Shown: positions 1,786 to 24,757 of the stretch, piece after piece
Layout: every line of letters begins with the position of its first letter
Position numbering within the stretch: the stretch's first letter is position 1
Virus record (IMG/VR): IMGVR_UViG_3300045988_025400
Origin: a virus
Reading direction: 5' to 3' (one strand)
Length of the DNA: 41,551 bases
Notes under the pieces: generated by a model
Told to the model about the DNA's origin: nothing
The model's database searches: none
Seen by the model: the letters and a program-made list of their open reading frames with translations, nothing else
Position numbers and translations under genes: made by a program

Positions 1786-2063
1786 TATTTCTCCCCATCA
1801 TACGGTCGCCGCAGCGCTACACGCACGGCGCTGGAATCGTTGTAGGCGTATTCAACGCCGATAACCTTCGTGTATCCGTCATAGACTGCCGTTTCGCCGC
1901 CCGCAATGTATTCCATGTGCCGAGTGTTGGCGGACGCGCTGAACGCAGTCAAAGCGTCTATCAGAGTCACACCCAGAATATCCACGTACAATATGCCAAC
2001 AGACGCCAAACCGCAAAATGGGCAGTCATACGCAGTGCCATTGGCAATTTTGAATTTTGGCAT
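1785..2063 (-). CDS. hypothetical tail-module protein (92 aa)
   Basis: ORF 1785..2081 trimmed to the ATG (MPKFKIANGTAYD...), which is preceded by GGGAGGGCG 7 nt upstream. It lies between the tail-tip and fibre genes. Confidence 0.55.
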   Translation of the reverse strand: MPKFKIANGTAYDCPFCGLASVGILYVDILGVTLIDALTAFSASANTRHMEYIAGGETAVYDGYTKVIGVEYAYNDSSAVRVALRRPYDGEK

Positions 2064-2067
2064 AGCT

Positions 2068-3327
2068 CTACGCCCTCCCAATCACATAAGTTGCCGCATC
2101 TTTCTTCATCACCATATAACTGTCGCCGTTAATGATAAAATTGTTTCCCGCAACAGTTAGCGAGGATATTTCTGCGATAGCGGCGTACATCCTGTTCGTC
2201 CACAGCTTTTCGGATTGAACTTGCCCGGTTACGACCTTATTTGCATAGATCACATCCGCAAAGTAACCGTTGATTGTGCTATTACATGTGCTCGGGTAGA
2301 CTGACCCGGACGTGATATGCCTGTTCACAATGGCGTCTGTTCCGATCTGGCCGCCGCCAACAGAAAAGCTTGCAAGTCCCGCTCCGTCAAAATACCCAGC
2401 GTTGCCGCCGTAGTCGATGCTCCCAGCCTGCACCGTTCCCAAAAATTTGCCGCTGTAGGCGGTCAGATTGCCGCTGCTGTCAACCGTGAAATACTTGCCA
2501 AGCTGGATACCGTTTGGGCCAAAATAAATGCCGTTGGTATTCGTGCCGCCCCATGTCTGGCCGTTGGTACTCAGATATCCGTTTTTGATCGTCAAGCCAC
2601 CAATAACGCCGCTGGTGGCGGTGATTTTACCCGTAACACTCAGCCCGCTTTTATCGGCTTTCAGCACCGTACCGCCGTTGCTGGTCAGCGTCCATCCGTC
2701 CGCTGTCAGGCTCCATCCGAAACTCGCATTATCTCCGCCCTTGCGGTCTACCTTGGCACTGATTCCCCCGGCCTGAATGTTCAGCGCCGCCGTAAGAGAT
2801 TCGGTATCGCTCTCTCGCGCTTCGACCTCTGCCAGAATCTGATCGGCCATCACCGCGAGGCTTGCTTTTACTTCCTTGTGTTGCCGCTCAATTTTCCGCG
2901 TTGTTGGAGATTTGTACTCGTATTTATAGTTGATTTTTTCGCCGCCCGGCGCGGACAGATTGGCCGTATACAGCGGCCCATGAGAAACGTCTTTCTGGTA
3001 TATGCCACTGTATACGCTGCCCACCGATACGCCGTCCCCGATCTCGGCCGCTGGGTTCAGGTGCGCGTCACTGGCCGTATATGGTTGATATTGCCATCCT
3101 CGGATTTTGGCGAGAATGTCATTTGCCATCTTTTGCGATCCCCACGGGCATTCAAGCGTCAGCGTGCGGCCTGTGTCGCTTCCTGCGGAGTATTCCATCT
3201 CGTCAGAAACAACAATAGTCACGCCGGAATAGCCGTCAAATTCCTCCTGTTTTTCCAGCGAGGAGACAAACTTTCGCACATTCACAATGTCAGACAACGA
3301 TCCTGTCACCTCCAAACGTAATGGCAA
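2068..3327 (-). CDS. tail-tip / minor structural protein
   Basis: Roughly 410-aa ORF downstream of the tape measure with a beta-rich G/S/T repeat C-terminus (GLSVTGKITATSGVIGGLTIKNGYLSTNG...). The start is uncertain: TTG at 3327, or TTG at 3297 after GGAGGTGA. It overlaps the end of the upstream gene. Confidence 0.7.
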   Translation of the reverse strand: MPLRLEVTGSLSDIVNVRKFVSSLEKQEEFDGYSGVTIVVSDEMEYSAGSDTGRTLTLECPWGSQKMANDILAKIRGWQYQPYTASDAHLNPAAEIGDGVSVGSVYSGIYQKDVSHGPLYTANLSAPGGEKINYKYEYKSPTTRKIERQHKEVKASLAVMADQILAEVEARESDTESLTAALNIQAGGISAKVDRKGGDNASFGWSLTADGWTLTSNGGTVLKADKSGLSVTGKITATSGVIGGLTIKNGYLSTNGQTWGGTNTNGIYFGPNGIQLGKYFTVDSSGNLTAYSGKFLGTVQAGSIDYGGNAGYFDGAGLASFSVGGGQIGTDAIVNRHITSGSVYPSTCNSTINGYFADVIYANKVVTGQVQSEKLWTNRMYAAIAEISSLTVAGNNFIINGDSYMVMKKDAATYVIGRA

Positions 3328-4072
3328 ATCCTGCGTTGTCGGTCAGATACCGCGTCTCCTTCGGGATGTCCCAGAAGCAAACCAGCTGCAATTCGCCAGC
3401 TTCGCTCATGATAAAGCTGCCCGCGTACATGGCCGCGATATAGCCCAGATACTCCCGGCAGGAATATGTAGTGTTGTACTGCACAGGATACGCGGCGGTC
3501 ATCATGGCGGTGGTGCGGCGGTCAACTGTGACGTTCAGCGCCGCCGCGATTTCCTTCACAACGTCAATATCCTTCGCGGGCCACGAAAGCTTTGTGTTTG
3601 CCGGATAATCCTGCTCAGAGAACAAAAGCGCGTCATAGCCGTGGATTTGCAGCCACTTCACATCATCCTCGTCCGCGTCCTCATCGATGGAATCGGCAAA
3701 AAATATGCCCTGTTGCAGCCACTCCGAATGCCGCTCACCGTCTGTAAGCCGGGAATAGATGGAGATACGCGAAAGTCCCACGATCGTGCCGACAGGCTTC
3801 AGCATTTTTATATTGCACTCACGGCTGATGCATTCGCCTACCGTTGGCTCGCTGCCGCTAAATATGCCTCCGCTGGTGGACACGTCCGCCAGCATACTTT
3901 CACCATATCCGCCGTCAGCGCCGGAAGCGGACACCAGAATGCGCACGCCGCCGAAGGTGATGTAATCACCGCTCTTGTCGATCAGCAGGCCGCTGTCACC
4001 GATGGAAACTCTCGTTTCTACGGTGTAGTTCCCCGTTAGCAGCTCGCGATACAGGGCAGATGTTGCTTGCAT
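3290..4072 (-). CDS. tail component (baseplate/distal-tail region)
   Basis: ORF 3290..4078 trimmed to ATG 4072, preceded by TAAGGAG 5 nt upstream. It is the second gene after the tape measure. Confidence 0.7.
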   Translation of the reverse strand: MQATSALYRELLTGNYTVETRVSIGDSGLLIDKSGDYITFGGVRILVSASGADGGYGESMLADVSTSGGIFSGSEPTVGECISRECNIKMLKPVGTIVGLSRISIYSRLTDGERHSEWLQQGIFFADSIDEDADEDDVKWLQIHGYDALLFSEQDYPANTKLSWPAKDIDVVKEIAAALNVTVDRRTTAMMTAAYPVQYNTTYSCREYLGYIAAMYAGSFIMSEAGELQLVCFWDIPKETRYLTDNAGFAITFGGDRIVV

Positions 4073-17711: not shown

Positions 17712-18905
17712 TCAATCGTCATTCAAAAGCACCGCTTTCTTCCCCGTAAACTTCTCCCACCGGTCAACAATGACATCGGCATACTTCGGATCATACTCCA
17801 TGCAGAAAGCGTGTCTGCCATTCTGCTCCGCTGCCATGATCGTTGTGCCGGACCCAGCGAACAGGTCAAGCACATTCTCGCCCGGCTTACTGGAGCACTG
17901 CATCTGGTAATCAAACAGCTTAATCGGCTTCATGGTCGGATGCTCCGCAGATTTGACAGGCTTATCAAAATTCAACACGGTTGTCTGTCTGCGGTTCTTG
18001 AAGAAATAATGCTTCTTACCTTCCGTCCATCCGTACAGACAAGGCTCGTGCGCTTCCTCTTCAATCTCGCTCTCACCATACAAGCAAGGCTCATGTTTCC
18101 ACTGGAAATCCTGTCTCCCCATCACAAGGGAGTTCTTCACCCAGATCAGGCACTGCCGGACACGCAGCATCGCATCTCTGCACGCGCCTCGGAAGTTATA
18201 CCCCTCGCTGTCTGCGTGCCAAATGTAAAATGGAGCGCCGGGTTTCATAACCATCGCCGCATTGGAAAACGCGTCCGTCAGGAACCGTCTAAATGCCGTA
18301 TCCTCCATATTGTCGTTCTTAATCTTCCCGGCGGTGCCCTGATAGTCCACATTGTACGGAGGGTCTGTGAGCAGCAAATCCATTTGTGCCCCCCCCACGA
18401 GCTTCTGTACGTCTGTCAAAGACGTGCTATCTCCGCACATAAGGCGATGGTCTCCAAGCTGGTACACATCGCCAAGTTTGCTCTTCGGCTCTGCTGGTAA
18501 AACAGGATCGTAGTTGTCCTCTACAACTGACGTGTCGAGTTCATCACGCAGCCCCCAATCAAAGTCAAACGCCGACAAATCCAGCCCAGGCAGTTCATCA
18601 GCCAGCAGGTCAAAGTCCCAATCGCTCTCGTTGCTCTTGTTGTCCACCAGCCGCAGGGCGTTTACCTGCTCCGGTGTCAGATCATCCACACAGACGCACG
18701 GCACTTCTTCCATGCCCAGCTTCTTTGCCGCCATAGCGCGGCAGTGGCCGATGACAATAACACCCTCTCGGTCAATCACAATCGGCTGCACGAACCCGTA
18801 CTGTTTAATGCTTTCGGCCACATTGTTGATTTGCCGTCTGTCGTGCTTCTTGGCATTTGCAGCATACGGCATAATATCCGCCAGCCGCTTGTTTTTTACT
18901 TCCAT
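17712..18905 (-). CDS. ParB-like nuclease domain fused to a beta-class amino (N6-A/N4-C) DNA methyltransferase
   Basis: N-terminal ParB/Srx-like region (...VIGHCRAMAAKKLG...). DPPY (motif IV) precedes FAGSGTT (motif I). Contains an in-frame G8 tract (18389-18396) and a duplicated HEPCLYG segment. Confidence 0.9.
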   Translation of the reverse strand: MEVKNKRLADIMPYAANAKKHDRRQINNVAESIKQYGFVQPIVIDREGVIVIGHCRAMAAKKLGMEEVPCVCVDDLTPEQVNALRLVDNKSNESDWDFDLLADELPGLDLSAFDFDWGLRDELDTSVVEDNYDPVLPAEPKSKLGDVYQLGDHRLMCGDSTSLTDVQKLVGGAQMDLLLTDPPYNVDYQGTAGKIKNDNMEDTAFRRFLTDAFSNAAMVMKPGAPFYIWHADSEGYNFRGACRDAMLRVRQCLIWVKNSLVMGRQDFQWKHEPCLYGESEIEEEAHEPCLYGWTEGKKHYFFKNRRQTTVLNFDKPVKSAEHPTMKPIKLFDYQMQCSSKPGENVLDLFAGSGTTIMAAEQNGRHAFCMEYDPKYADVIVDRWEKFTGKKAVLLNDD

Positions 18906-21088: not shown

Positions 21089-21439
21089 TCACTCCACCTC
21101 CTGCATCCAGAACTCGCGGCGACAATCGGAGCACCCCTGGCGCAAACAATCGGCGGTAGCCCGTATATCAGCAACAATACGCTTAGGGCACAGGATCAAA
21201 AGCCCGGTGTTATCAATATCAGCCTGAGGATACTGCTCCAAAAACACGCTCTGCCGCGTCTTGCACGGGTGTGCAGCAGACCACTCCTCGACCAGCTCGA
21301 CAATCTCCTCCGCGCTCTCCTGTGAACGCTCCTTAGCAGGTACAGTACAAAAGTCAGTCTTGTATACAGGGCAATCCTCGCACTCATCAACCTTTGTGCA
21401 CATACGCAGATATTCCTTTACAAACTTCACAGCATCCAT
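21089..21439 (-). CDS. hypothetical Cys-rich protein
   Basis: Trimmed to ATG 21439, which overlaps the upstream TGA. Confidence 0.55.
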   Translation of the reverse strand: MDAVKFVKEYLRMCTKVDECEDCPVYKTDFCTVPAKERSQESAEEIVELVEEWSAAHPCKTRQSVFLEQYPQADIDNTGLLILCPKRIVADIRATADCLRQGCSDCRREFWMQEVE

Positions 21440-21834
21440 CACATTTCCCTCCATTTGCACCCGTCACAGGCGCCCTCGTGTGCTTGTTTGTACTTCCCGC
21501 AGTATTGGCACAGCTCGTTTTTCATGGCGTGCAATTCACTTTGCTCCTCCTCCACCGCTACGGTCTTGGCAAACTGCGCCAGTCCATCACTCATGTCCGC
21601 GATTTGCGCATCCCGCCGCAAAACGGTGTCCCGCAGGGCGGCGTTGGCCTGCAACAGTGCCTCGATGTGCCGCTGCTGGTTCTCGATCAGGTCAGCGGCG
21701 GCAACATTTTTCTTTGTGCAGCAGTCGCCCAGTTCGTCGCTCGTGCTGAAAAACGGGCAATCCTTACTGCACTCAAATTCGCCATTGAAACTGGCACAGC
21801 ACCGCAGCGCGGTCACGATCTCGTCCCTTTTCAT
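21439..21834 (-). CDS. hypothetical Cys-rich / coiled-coil protein
   Basis: 131-aa ORF. GAGGAGGAA RBS lies within the end of the MTase gene. Confidence 0.6.
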   Translation of the reverse strand: MKRDEIVTALRCCASFNGEFECSKDCPFFSTSDELGDCCTKKNVAAADLIENQQRHIEALLQANAALRDTVLRRDAQIADMSDGLAQFAKTVAVEEEQSELHAMKNELCQYCGKYKQAHEGACDGCKWREM

Positions 21835-21835
21835 G

Positions 21836-23664
21836 TCATTCCTCCTCTGGAAAATGTTTCTTCGTCACGGCGATGGGAAACGGCTCGATCTCGCTTGCCC
21901 ACCGCGCCGTGCCTTTACCGTGTATGCGTTCCCAGATCAGCGGGAACCCTGCGATGCCATCAAATAAGCTACCCAGCGTCGCGTCCTCCGGCAAATACCG
22001 CGCCATACGCCGCAGCATCCAGTCCCAGAAGGGCAGGGCGATGGAGTTGCCCAGTGCCTTGTACCGTGGGCTGTCCGCGTCCTTGTGCTTCTTTCCCTTT
22101 TCGTCTGTCCACTCGCCGATGTCCGTCCAGTAGTCAGGGAATCCTTGCAGCCGTTCACATTCCATCGGCGTCAGTCGGCGCACGACCATGTGTGTGATAG
22201 CAAGGTCTGTGCTGTCCTTAAAGTCCCGTTGCTTGCAACTGCTTGCAACCTCGGCGGCGCGGTAATCTCCAAAACCATTCATCTGGTATGTAAGCGGCAC
22301 TTGGTTTCCGCCCGTGCCCATTCTCGCCTGCAATGCTGGGACTTGCTCCCCGCACTCGCGGATGACGTCACAGGCGTGTGTCATGTCCAGCGCCACCACC
22401 GCTATGCCGCCCTGATTTTTGCTTGGGTCTGGATTTGTCGTGTCGAGAGTTTTTGCAATTTCGGTTTCTCGGCAACCACTGTTGGGGTTTTTGCTTTTCA
22501 TGCTGTTGCTGGCGAGACTGTCAAAGCTATACGCGCACAGTACGCTGTCCCGCGCCATACCGCCGTTCTCATTGGCATTCAGACTGTGCCATACGCCATC
22601 CTGATCGTACACTCTTGCGCTCTGCGCGTCCCACGGATTCATGCACATTACCCCGTGGCGGTCGCCGGCGGTCAGCGTGGGGGATGGGTCGCCTTCTTTG
22701 CCGATGCCAAGACCGTTGCCGCTGCCATCGTGGTTGCGGCTCTCTCCGCCGCCCTGCCATCTGGTGGCTTTGTCGTTGATGGGGATAGCCGTTGCAAATA
22801 CGCCATGCGAATGTGCGGCAGAAATGGTGTTCGCCGGGTCACCCGGTTCTCCTACGCCGAATCCTGTTCCGCGCCCTAACGCTTTGCAGCGCGTAGCCAC
22901 CATCAGGTTAATAGGCGTGGGCGTGAAAATCGTCTGATCGTTGCCCGTACCAAGCGTTCCGCTTTTCTCCGTCTGCACTAACGCGCCTTTTCCTCCTCCG
23001 TCACAGCCCCCCCCTGATGCGGACTGCATAAGAAGCACCGCTTTCAGCCGCTCCGGCAGGTCCTTCCCCCGCCGCTCCGCTCTCCGTAATATCCCCAGAC
23101 ACGCTTTCGCGGTCAAACGGTATTTGGGCAGCGGATTCACCTCCAAAATCTGCGACAACCGAGATTCTTCGGCGACGCTGTGGGGTCCCCAGACGGATAA
23201 CATTTCCTGTACGGCTGTCTCGGATGGTTTTTCCCCAGTCTTTAGCGTCGTGAGTTCGCCAAGCGATAGACCACCCATCACCGTCGATGGCTCCTGCTTT
23301 TGTCCATTTCCACTTTTCCGGCAGTCCAGATAGAGAAAATCCTGGTTCTGCGATACGCGCAATTTCTTCCAGCACGGCGTGGAAGTCCCGTCCTCTGTTG
23401 CTGCTGAATGCTCCGACAACGTTCTCCCAAACGAGAAACCGAGGTCGGACCATGTCACCTGTCCGTCCATTCCGTTTTTCCTCCGCTCTCATTTCTTTTA
23501 CGATGCGCACCTGCTCCATAAACAAGCCGCTTCGCGCTCCCGCCAAACCGGCGCGTTTTCCGGCGATGGATAGATCCTGTCTAACAAGGTGAACCACCTG
23601 TAATACACCAAATGGGTTCAATCTCTGCCCCATTTATTTTCGTAATATCGCCTAAATGTTTCAC
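21836..23664 (-). pseudogene. circularly permuted DNA (cytosine-5) methyltransferase interrupted by two frame changes
   Basis: Segment 1 (23584-23664; GTG start after AGGAGGTG): KHLGDITKINGAEIEPIWCITGGSPC, then TAG. Segment 2 (frame +1, from 23579): QDLSIAGKRAGL..FLVWENV..PQRRRRISVVADFGG..RIRGG, ending at the G8 tract. Segment 3 (frame -1, to 21836): CDGGGKGALVQ...RRLTPMECERLQGFPDYW..YKALGNS..., then ATLGSLFDGIAGFPL (motif I) and WASEIEPFPIAVTKKHFPEEE (motif II). Confidence 0.75.
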
Positions 23665-23676
23665 CTAAATCACCTC

Positions 23677-23952
23677 CTAATCTCCAAACACAACGCCGCA
23701 CTCGTCCTTCAGCACGTCCTTGATGTGCTTCCGCTTGATGCGGCCTTCGTTGATCTCCTGCGTGATCTTTTCCAAGCATTCGTACAGATACGCGATACTG
23801 TGGGTGTCCCGGCTGTCCGGCGTCTCCTCCTGGACGTGCCAGCCGCACTTGTCGATCAGCGCCATCGCCACCAGGTCCATGCACTCCTGCGTGCCTCTGC
23901 GCTTGCCGTCCATAAAAATCCGGTCGTCCCGGCTCAAATGCTGCTTGCCCAT
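23677..23952 (-). CDS. hypothetical protein (91 aa)
   Basis: ORF from the track, lying between the two MTase genes. Its stop lies inside the RBS of the C5-MTase start. Confidence 0.6.
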   Translation of the reverse strand: MGKQHLSRDDRIFMDGKRRGTQECMDLVAMALIDKCGWHVQEETPDSRDTHSIAYLYECLEKITQEINEGRIKRKHIKDVLKDECGVVFGD

Positions 23953-23955
23953 GTG

Positions 23956-24563
23956 TCACCACAACCTTTCCTGCGCCGTATGCTCCGCAAACCGCTGCTC
24001 TTGCAGCCGGAAGTATGCCGGATCGATCTCGCATCCAACAAACTCAAAGCCGAGGTTATAGGCCGCTATTCTGCTGCTCCCGCTACCCAGATGCGTGTCC
24101 AAAATGCGCCAGCCTTCTTTGGCGTACTTCATCAGCAGCCACTCGTACAATGCCACGGGCTTTTGCGTTGGATGTATTCTTTTCCCCTTTTCTTGCAACG
24201 GCGAGTAATAAAAAGTTCTCGCGGATGTATCGAAAGAAGTCCATGCAAATTCGCAAGATGCAAAAGAAATATCTTCCGGCTGCTTTTTGTCCCAAATAAC
24301 AAATCCCCTACAAGGCGGAAGATCGTAATAATTCCCCCCCATATTATTTGGTTTTTGCTGCATCTTTTTAATTCGCTAAAATACACATCACCCGGAGTCG
24401 CATCGTCCCATCTTGTTTCAGTGGCATTGTATTTTTTCAATCGACCACTATCATGAATGCTAATTCCATACGGCGGGTCTACGATGGCAAGGTCAAACGC
24501 CTTGTCCGGCAGCGTCCGCATATACTCCATGCAGTCGGTGTTTATCGCAATCTGCTTGCCCAT
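23956..24563 (-). pseudogene. beta-class N6-adenine/N4-cytosine DNA methyltransferase, frame broken at a G7 tract
   Basis: Frame 1: MGKQIAINTDCMEYMRTLPDKAFDLAIVDPPYG...NQIIWGG. Frame 2: (GG)NYYDLPPCRGFVIWDKK...HPTQKPVALYEWLL...DTHLGSGSS. The junction is TGGGGGGGAAT (7 G; plus-strand C7 at 24334-24340). One extra G would give ...IIWGGNYYDLPP... in frame. Confidence 0.8.
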
Positions 24564-24757
24564 CACTCGCCCTCCTCCAGACGCACCACCTCATAGCATC
24601 CGTAGCTGCCGACGTGCCGGAACGCCTTGCAGATACCCACACGGACATTCTGATATTTCCGACCGGACAACTGCGCCAGCTCCGCCGTGGTCGTACCCCA
24701 CCAGCGGGGCAGGCGGTACTTATCGCGGGTGACTATCATGTAGACTGTCATGCTCAC
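24563..24757 (-). CDS. hypothetical small protein, possibly HTH
   Basis: 64-aa ORF. Its TGA overlaps the MTase ATG. Confidence 0.5.
   Translation of the reverse strand: MSMTVYMIVTRDKYRLPRWWGTTTAELAQLSGRKYQNVRVGICKAFRHVGSYGCYEVVRLEEGE

Follow-up and report, generated by a model that had tools for sequence, protein, structure and literature searches.

A probable member of a natural circularly permuted family of phage cytosine-5 DNA methyltransferases, with a dual-coding segment and poly-G tracts

Can a naturally occurring DNA (cytosine-5) methyltransferase (C5-MTase) have its cofactor-binding motifs at the C-terminus, and is such a gene read as one chain or as several? These questions are raised by a locus at positions 21836-23664 on the minus strand of the IMG/VR virus record IMGVR_UViG_3300045988_025400. 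The whole stretch of 41,551 nucleotides that was analysed, referred to here as the window, is the reverse complement of ENA contig k119_278373. An earlier note on this DNA had described the locus as a C5-MTase gene in which the module that binds S-adenosylmethionine (AdoMet), motifs I and II, had been moved from the N-terminus to the C-terminus. The analysis reported here indicates, with a probability of about 0.85, that the locus is a phage C5-MTase gene and belongs to a family, occurring in nature, of circularly permuted enzymes with a dual-coding segment and a choice of reading frame at poly-G tracts.

Motif order and break point

The elements listed in the earlier note, from the ribosome binding site and the GTG at 23664 through HLGDI, ENV, QRRRR, motif IX and YKALGNS to motifs I and II, were all present on the minus strand as it had described, and all window coordinates below refer to that strand. 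A Shine-Dalgarno sequence, AGGAGGTG (23671..23678), read directly from the sequence, is located 6 nt before the GTG start codon (23664-23662). The start frame, designated F0, consists of 27 codons, VKHLGDITKINGAEIEPIWCITGGSPC (23584..23664), and carries motif III, HLGDI (23658-23644), and the first half of motif IV, GGSPC (23598-23584), which ends at the catalytic Cys. F0 is terminated by a TAG codon (23583-23581) directly 3' of the Cys codon. The remaining catalytic half was found in a different frame, designated frame A, an open reading frame (ORF) of 210 residues (23001..23633) that includes QDLSIAG (23579-23559), motif VI, WENV (23429-23418), motif VIII, PQRRRR (23183-23166), and the strand ISVVADFGG (23165-23139) before ending in ...YAVRIRGGL-TGA (stop, 23003-23001).

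A tract of eight G residues (G8; 23007..23014), at a site that varies in length among relatives, sets the frame entering the target recognition domain (TRD). The third frame is reached across this tract and holds everything from CDGGGKG on. It corresponds to ORF beta, 544 residues (21836..23470), which begins at ATG 23470 with GGAGG 9 nt upstream and reads, in order, through about 100 residues of +1-frame sequence over the motif VI-VIII region, a module designated F3, the TRD and motifs IX, X, I and II. The long target-recognition region extends from CDGGGKGALVQTEK to just before motif IX (22181..23005) and is mosaic, its modules differing between otherwise near-identical relatives. Motif IX, RRLTPMECERLQGFPD (22180-22133), and motif X, YKALGNSIALP (22063-22031), form a region at 22031..22180. 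Beyond motif X come 21 residues of helix and linker. The junction YLPED/ATLGS (21997-21968) opens the X-to-I segment (21839..21997), which continues in the frame of motif X into motif I, LFDGIAGF (21967-21944), within ATLGSLFDGIAGF, and then into motif II, WASEIEPFP (21901-21875), within WASEIEPFPIAVTKKHFPEEE-stop, followed by ...KKHFPEEE and the stop codon (21838-21836).

The motif order in the window is III-IV-VI-VIII-TRD-IX-X-I-II and the canonical I-to-X order is not kept. The earlier note was correct in the motifs, in their order and in the in-frame run from motif X into motifs I and II. The continuity of the gene, which it had described as running through all of the motifs, did not hold, since the motifs are distributed over three frames and no single polypeptide has all of them; the note had referred to a frame-corrected translation only in passing, and it mentioned neither the three-frame split, nor the stop inside the catalytic motif, nor the conserved +1 frame. 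The catalytic Cys of motif IV is in another frame than motifs VI and VIII in the window copy, while relatives of 514-598 residues carry all of the motifs in one chain and the PCQ of motif IV is intact in P0344, L014, L006 and L007.

The break point was located by comparison with canonical phage enzymes (blastp). The last 48 residues of the window gene aligned with 60% identity (E ~3e-12) to the enzymes of Streptococcus phage Javan112 (residues 6-48) and phage NatCom_9291 (residues 7-49), while the N-terminus aligned from residue 49/50 of the canonical enzymes with 63-68% identity. The canonical sequence ...KRMPE/VKHLGD... is cut exactly at the slash, the corresponding window sequence being ...FPE/VKHLGD. 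This position lies between motifs II and III, the topology known as Type B, and motifs X, I and II are contiguous in ORF beta and in all relatives.

Profile comparisons gave the same picture, as the note had expected. Frame A matched PF00145 at positions 72-131 (37.7 bits) and the IX-X region of ORF beta matched at positions 252-314 (33.3 bits), both above the cut-off of 22 bits; motif I (LFDGIAGF) and the acidic residue of motif II (WASEIE), at the C-terminus, correspond to positions 4-43. When the pieces were re-joined in canonical order they gave one contiguous match, positions 4-131, with a score of 111 bits, whereas the proteins in their natural order matched in the way that a permutation predicts. 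The natural single chain P0344, for example, scored 90.6 bits, with a match that starts at profile position 46, and its score with TIGR00675 (86.5 bits) was under the cut-off of 100.65 because the match is split. The two findings that the note had named as decisive against a permutation, a C-terminal segment of 55 residues other than motifs I and II and a normal pair of these motifs upstream of 23664, were both looked for. The tail matched canonical N-termini at 60% identity, and the ORF of 91 residues upstream of 23664 had no methyltransferase match in Pfam or NCBIfam, so that there is no normal motif I or II at that position.

These sequence comparisons show that the circular permutation of the window gene is real and its break point exact. 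The part that makes up the first ~48 residues of a canonical enzyme, which include strand beta1, the FxGxG loop and the acidic residue of motif II, follows the helix of motif X. An unchanged AdoMet pocket and catalytic site would be expected to form, because the N- and C-termini of C5-MTases are close together and motif X packs beside motif I. The probable role of the enzyme, as with other phage orphan methyltransferases, would be methylation of the phage DNA against host restriction.

The permuted order was not confined to the window. A tblastn search of phage records found the X-to-I-II continuation in several contigs from faecal viromes and in FP_Toutatis and Lelie, two phages of Faecalibacterium. 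The order III-IV-VI-VIII-IX-X-I-II was present in about 56 of 80 IMG/VR loci, in many of them in a single frame, and intact single-ORF permuted genes were found in L014 (514 residues), L006, L007, L009 and many IMG/VR loci. Six single-chain permuted proteins of 595-598 residues (P0344, P0340, P0354, P0355, P0358 and P0359), all with PCQ intact, are ~90% identical to the window gene. A HMMER scan of 1.84 billion cluster representatives with a query of 116 residues spanning IX-X-I-II yielded 763 representatives (50% identity clusters) at E<=1e-30, and in each of the best 150 of these the match was one stretch at the C-terminus of the protein. Among GTDB species genomes, 12 of 80 matches covered the whole junction and the rest matched the C-terminal or the N-terminal half of canonical enzymes only; the 12 carriers were Oscillospiraceae, the isolate Faecalibacterium tardum CLA-AA-H175, Faecousia, Dysosmobacter, Flemingiibacterium and Lachnospiraceae. 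From this distribution, the permutation is a family trait of Faecalibacterium phages and of Oscillospiraceae and Lachnospiraceae prophages and not an accident of one phage.

A single origin of the permutation is favoured by the junction, which does not differ in length between the window-like and Toutatis-like permuted clades and is similar in sequence. The note had proposed tandem duplication followed by loss of both ends, which is plausible, and had suggested that related phages be searched for canonical and tandem versions. Canonical enzymes were found; the tandem intermediate, a locus with motifs I and II at both ends, was absent among ~180 loci. It had also read the sequence at the X-to-I junction as a fossil ribosome binding site and start. 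That interpretation was discarded as a general feature of the junction: GGAGGA occurs only in the YLPE[DG]A subclade, where it simply encodes P-E-G/D, and the junctions of the subclades with YLKDKP, QYLRPV and YLVKNA have nothing that resembles it.

Two further observations concern the module around these genes. The protein P0124, entered in nr as 'Cytosine specific methyltransferase [Caudoviricetes sp.]', is a chimera of an N-terminus like that of phosphoadenosine phosphosulfate (PAPS) reductase (...FSGGKDS) and a IX-X-I-II tail, and in L182-L187 (locus 1-717) a PAPS_reduct gene takes the place of the N6 methyltransferase gene found beside the C5 gene in the window. Both point to frequent recombination in the methyltransferase module. 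In L014-L016, gene callers had annotated a +1-frame ORF of 140 residues and a 3' fragment instead of the intact methyltransferase ORF of 514 residues, which implies that many database entries of the permuted family are fragments.

The F3 module and the poly-G tracts

The F3 module, SRLSQILEVNPLPKYRLTAKACLGILRRAERRGKDLPERLKAVLLMQ (23024..23164), is a +1-frame sequence that overlaps frame A at its motif VIII strand and linker, and both frames are open. It comprises ~47 codons with the pattern SRLSQILE...KYxLxAKACxGILRRAxRRGKxLPxxLKxxL. A tblastn search with the F3 peptide gave matches in 125 phage records, and in every case that was checked, including all 83 loci with a motif VIII anchor, F3 lay at +1 relative to the methyltransferase ORF as annotated. 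The carriers checked included Javan112, NatCom_9291, Vibrio phage K453, the P1 Dmt protein and Mycobacterium phage Porcelain. In P1 (L097, MH445380; dmt coding sequence at locus 1885-3903), F3 reads LLSQVLEQTSIPQRYFLSSKACAGILRRAEARGRKLPDIL in the +1 frame at ~2501-2653 and is unannotated in the record.

The distribution of nucleotide variability changes along the segment. From motif VI to QRRRR the variability follows the codon phase of the main frame, the ISVVADFGG/SRLSQILE stretch is almost frozen at all three codon positions, and from later on to the G tract the variability follows the phase of F3. Over ACQGILRRAxRRGKxLP the entropy at the three F3 codon positions ranged from 0.40/0.42/1.27 to 0.57/0.30/1.24, and 19 canonical-only sequences, from genomes of 37-60% GC that include P1 and a Mycobacterium phage, gave an F3-frame entropy of 0.58/0.46/1.27. 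Of 103 sequences, 100 kept frame A free of stops across the F3 region, against 0.36 expected by synonymous resampling, and the F3 frame was open for 85 codons upstream in 90 of 101 (0.41 expected), while the third frame was open in 2 of 103 and 4 of 101, counts that come from related and hence not independent sequences. The codon-phase pattern shows F3 to be under purifying selection in every family member examined, P1 Dmt included.

An F3 profile matched 6186 database proteins, the best of which, 63-144 residues long and without a Pfam domain, are gene-caller predictions of the same ORF; the comparison with PHROG gave only a weak match to 'DNA methyltransferase'. In an AlphaFold2 (AF2) model of ORF beta, F3 formed three helices with a predicted local distance difference test (pLDDT) score of 65-83, and the N-terminal ~90 residues were disordered. 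Most loci have a candidate F3 start, an ATG with a Shine-Dalgarno-like motif, 29-56 nt upstream of ENV (GGAGG and ATG 23470 in the window), and some loci have only nearer ATG codons, at -62 or -20 relative to motif VIII. The idea that two compensating frameshifts place F3 in the main chain was rejected, since frame A is open through the F3 region and the motif VIII strand and LSQILE use the same nucleotides. In the preferred reading, F3 would be the first element of the recognition domain, provided in trans where the methyltransferase is a single chain and in cis where there are two ORFs.

Whether one chain or two ORFs are encoded depends on the G tract. At the window's tract site, relatives had G5, G6, G7, G8, G9 or G11 and the downstream frame changed to match. 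With G7, frame A runs on into the TRD to give a single chain of ~595 residues and F3 is a separate short ORF; with G8, G5 or G11, the +1 frame is joined to the TRD and two overlapping ORFs result. Across loci there are two recurrent tract sites, one ~77-90 nt before motif VIII and the other ~169 nt after it (239 nt with a 70-nt insert), and the reading frame follows the tract length at both. Toutatis (L001) and Lelie (L003) share ~630 nt that differ solely in the tract ~90 nt before motif VIII, which is G9 in the former and G14 in the latter. At both lengths motifs IV-VI are out of frame with motif VIII, and the G9 of Toutatis joins motifs IV-VI to the F3 frame (annotated as gp14, 201 residues). 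A homopolymer inside an ORF that differs between near-identical sequences and sets the frame, one of the marks of phase-variable genes with simple sequence repeats, was observed in this family.

In the G8 state of the window, the gene would give a catalytic piece (motifs III-VIII) and a piece of 544 residues (F3-TRD-IX-X-I-II), and the two would have to assemble. An error in assembly as the source of the frame split was ruled out, because the independent metagenome contig L181 (SRR2231821) is identical to the window gene at 1829 of 1829 nt. ORF beta itself was recovered from the database at 100% identity (P0241), a sister allele, P0247, is present on at least 22 contigs, the two-ORF architecture was found in 110 of the best 120 database relatives of the 544-residue ORF, and a variant with an interrupted tract, SASGRGCD, forms a cluster of 102 member sequences. 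The proportion of two-ORF relatives, the interrupted-tract cluster and the identical contig together show the two-ORF state to be a common and stable natural configuration and not an error. In Mycobacterium phage Porcelain (L098), gp116 and gp117, both annotated as 'DNA methylase' coding sequences, represent one family member split at a G9 directly after F3; gp117, with motifs IX-X, is in the frame of F3, a counterpart, from a distant host group, of the window's two-ORF state.

The window genome is that of a temperate siphovirus-like phage, with genes for a tail fibre, tape measure, portal, large terminase and serine integrase. It has three DNA methyltransferase genes, each with a G7 or G8 on the coding strand, and three of the four G/C runs of at least 7 in the 41.5-kb window fall in these genes, which account for 8.7% of the sequence. 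Besides the C5 gene there is a fusion of a ParB-like domain and a methyltransferase (phrog_498; 17712-18905, minus strand), with a G8 at 18396-18389 that leaves it in frame, and an N6/N4 methyltransferase (DPPYGI...HPTQKP; 23956-24566, minus strand) that is divided into two ORFs exactly at a G7 (24341-24335; IIWGG/NYYDLPP). A G8 at the latter position would give back a single ORF; comparable copies of this tract were not found among the fetched loci. Two flanking ORFs, one of 131 residues, Cys-rich with a coiled coil (21439-21834, minus strand), and the one of 91 residues (23677-23952, minus strand), are kept beside the C5 gene in L002 and L182-L187, and neither matched a Pfam or NCBIfam family.

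The TAG cassette and the competing explanations

The window copy contains a cassette, GGTGGTTCACCTTGTTAG (18 nt, 23598-23581), plus one base (23580..23598 together), which comprises the TAG at 23583-23581 and the A at 23580. TAG and A are a 4-nt insertion between the Cys codon and the CAG codon of PCQ and introduce both a stop and a +1 shift. Across 21 loci, which fall into three diverged backgrounds and all have the GTG start, the 18 nt of the cassette do not differ, and the start region GGTGATTTAG-GTG is common to all loci that have it. Alleles that lack the insertion vary freely at synonymous positions in the same five codons. The cassette occurs with both tract states and is on all contigs of an abundant window-like haplotype. 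A recoded phage in which TAG is read as Gln was rejected, since the frame that follows is nonsense (CQTGSIHRR...). Because the cassette interrupts the catalytic piece right after the catalytic Cys, normal decoding of the window copy cannot put this Cys into one chain with motifs VI and VIII or give an active enzyme, and the copy is either switched off or dependent on +1 recoding. The cassette could be either a null allele spread by gene conversion or a 'shifty stop', a +1 recoding site.

It is possible that the window copy is simply a decaying pseudogene, inactivated by the TAG insertion and the extra G and without a functional product. In favour of this are the stop that follows the catalytic Cys in frame, the second frame change and the adjacent N6/N4 methyltransferase frameshifted at G7, and no known decoding mechanism gives back PCQ exactly. 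Against it, the configuration recurs base for base in an independent sample and, for the sister allele P0247, on at least 22 contigs; further stops have not accumulated, and 110 distinct database clusters, whose TRDs vary, keep the 544-residue ORF whole. The invariance of the cassette in three diverged backgrounds, while neighbouring codons vary, is also unlike neutral decay.

An undescribed modular system, in which F3 is the missing first element of the small domain, TAG+1 and AGGGGG-NNN-CUG-UGA-C are +1 recoding signals and the Type B arrangement unites AdoMet binding and recognition on one exchangeable polypeptide, is unlikely in this complete form. If it were true, the phage could set the ratio of the catalytic piece, the recognition/AdoMet piece and the full-length enzyme.

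Programmed +1 recoding at both frame breaks, by the ribosome or by RNA polymerase slipping at the G8, would yield a regulated low level of full-length enzyme beside the short products. At both breaks the shift that is needed is +1, and at both a stop codon would be in the A site after a Shine-Dalgarno-like purine run, the two sites being AGGUGGU-UCA-CCU-UGU-UAG-A and AGGGGG-GGG-CUG-UGA-C (23015-23000). The bacterial release factor 2 (RF2) site has a 5' Shine-Dalgarno stimulator (GG_GGG, sometimes GG_AGG), the shift codon CUU_U and the stop UGA(C) (PMC5009743). The second of the two sites is laid out in the same way, with the Shine-Dalgarno-like element 3 nt before the shift codon and UGA then C, and the variant with the interrupted tract reads AGGGAGGGG-CUG-UGA-C. 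The conservation of the cassette at the nucleotide level would also be in keeping with a recoding signal. The P-site codons UGU and CUG, however, are unable to re-pair in the +1 frame, unlike CUU, and the CUG is followed by U; the spacing from the Shine-Dalgarno element to the shift at the cassette is 7 nt, not 3; and a shift at the cassette would put Arg or Ser between the Cys and Gln of PCQ. The case is one of pattern resemblance, and recoding at both sites is regarded as distinctly improbable.

It is scarcely credible that the permuted order arose as an artefact, whether by mis-assembly or as a chimera in which one methyltransferase gene's 3' end was fused to the 5' end of another copy, for although metagenome assemblies can collapse or mis-join tandem repeats and a tandem duplicate is the presumed evolutionary intermediate, the junction has an equal linker length in two isolated sequenced phages, an isolate bacterial genome and hundreds of independent contigs, the ORF stops after motif II and is followed by the unrelated ORF of 131 residues, and none of the examined loci has motifs I and II at both ends.

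Several results weigh against the interpretation of the locus as a gene of a natural permuted C5-MTase family with a dual-coding segment and a poly-G frame choice. The stop inside motif IV takes the catalytic Cys from any normally decoded product, and the neighbouring N6 methyltransferase gene is out of frame at its G7; both fit decay as well as regulation. F3 had no match in Pfam, apart from a chance-level one to AbiEi_4, in NCBIfam or among PDB sequences, and an hhalign comparison placed it weakly (P=0.007, probability 5%) on residues 294-337 of E. coli Dcm, directly after motif VIII. The AF2 model of the single chain P0344, from an alignment of 34 sequences that was shallow over the N-terminal half, had a mean pLDDT of 32 and was unusable, so that the permuted fold is unsupported by a model, and that of ORF beta, from 148 sequences, had a mean pLDDT of 33 with only the F3 helices confident. 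In a rough neighbor-joining tree of the III-VIII region the permuted genes were not cleanly monophyletic, and the tree did not separate one origin from several. Finally, the loci are largely from human-gut metagenomes and are phylogenetically related, and the openness and entropy statistics are not independent observations. The interpretation as a permuted family with dual coding and frame choice is nonetheless retained, at the probability given at the outset.

Significance and relation to known methyltransferases

That the break point is unusual, as the earlier note had suggested, is consistent with the literature. Of ten permutation topologies constructed from M.MpeI and M.SssI by Slaska-Kiss et al. 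(PLoS One 2018), Type B, in cp62M.MpeI and cp58M.SssI, was the most active, at about the wild-type level (PMC5944983). Their search of REBASE gave 27 permuted C5-MTases from nature, each with its break in the variable region (Type H, e.g. M.BssHII), while Type B was apparently absent from nature, with weaker AdoMet binding offered as a possible reason (PMC5944983). In the literature that was searched, no report was found of a natural Type B enzyme, of an overlapping +1 module or of these G tracts. Since no later report of a natural Type B enzyme was found, the topology described here is new for natural enzymes, within a known enzyme class.

The question that the earlier work had left about Type B can be answered, in that the best laboratory topology, which had seemed to be missing from nature, is abundant in human-gut phages. 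The explanation by weaker AdoMet binding becomes testable on natural enzymes, and a second natural break point is added to the model of permutation by duplication. Among the by-products, the most interesting is a dual-coding module found across the family, together with a G-tract switch that fuses F3 to the recognition half. A dual-coding segment lies inside a very widespread phage gene, and annotation pipelines either miss F3 or call it a 'hypothetical protein'; if F3 is a subunit or a regulator, studies and clones of many phage methyltransferases have lacked it. The poly-G tracts in all three methyltransferase genes of one temperate phage suggest that gut phages may vary their own methylation state, which would bear on host range and on the reading of gut methylome data.

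The window family resembles cp62M.MpeI and cp58M.SssI, and the corresponding split fragments, in that the new N-terminus lies between motifs II and III and the order is III...X-I-II. It differs in that those enzymes are CG-specific laboratory constructs while the window family is natural and phage-borne, and of the two it is the window family that has a very long mosaic TRD, poly-G tracts and an overlapping +1-frame module. M.BssHII, M.Alw26I, M2.Eco31I, M.Esp3I and M2.BsaI, all Type H, and plant DRM2 are also circularly permuted C5-MTases and are thought to have arisen by tandem duplication and truncation. Their break point is different, since in the window family motifs I-II alone have been moved. 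In DRM2, motifs VI-X precede motifs I-V.

The canonical orphan C5-MTases of phages, such as the C5 domain of P1 Dmt and the enzymes of Javan112, NatCom_9291 and Vibrio phage K453, are 60-68% identical to the window gene over motifs I-VI and likewise have the 'QRRRRIxxVADF...ILFE' region and F3 in the +1 frame, but carry motifs I-II at the N-terminus, and the examples checked are single ORFs. Division of a C5-MTase between two chains has a precedent in M.AquI, an example of a split enzyme. The nearest precedent for F3 is the beta chain of M.EcoHK31I, which is encoded wholly in another frame inside the alpha gene, both chains being needed (PMC2836561). The beta chain, however, carries motif IX and belongs to a single enzyme, whereas F3 contains no motif of the ten, overlaps motif VIII and the linker and is conserved across a very broad phage family.

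As in the Mod phasevarions, an in-gene homopolymer varies among close relatives and changes the frame. The methyltransferases of the Mod phasevarions, most of them adenine enzymes of Type III or Type I, belong to host-adapted pathogens and are switched ON or OFF. In the phage C5 enzyme, by contrast, the tract picks between two open frames, one that gives a single chain and one that gives two ORFs.

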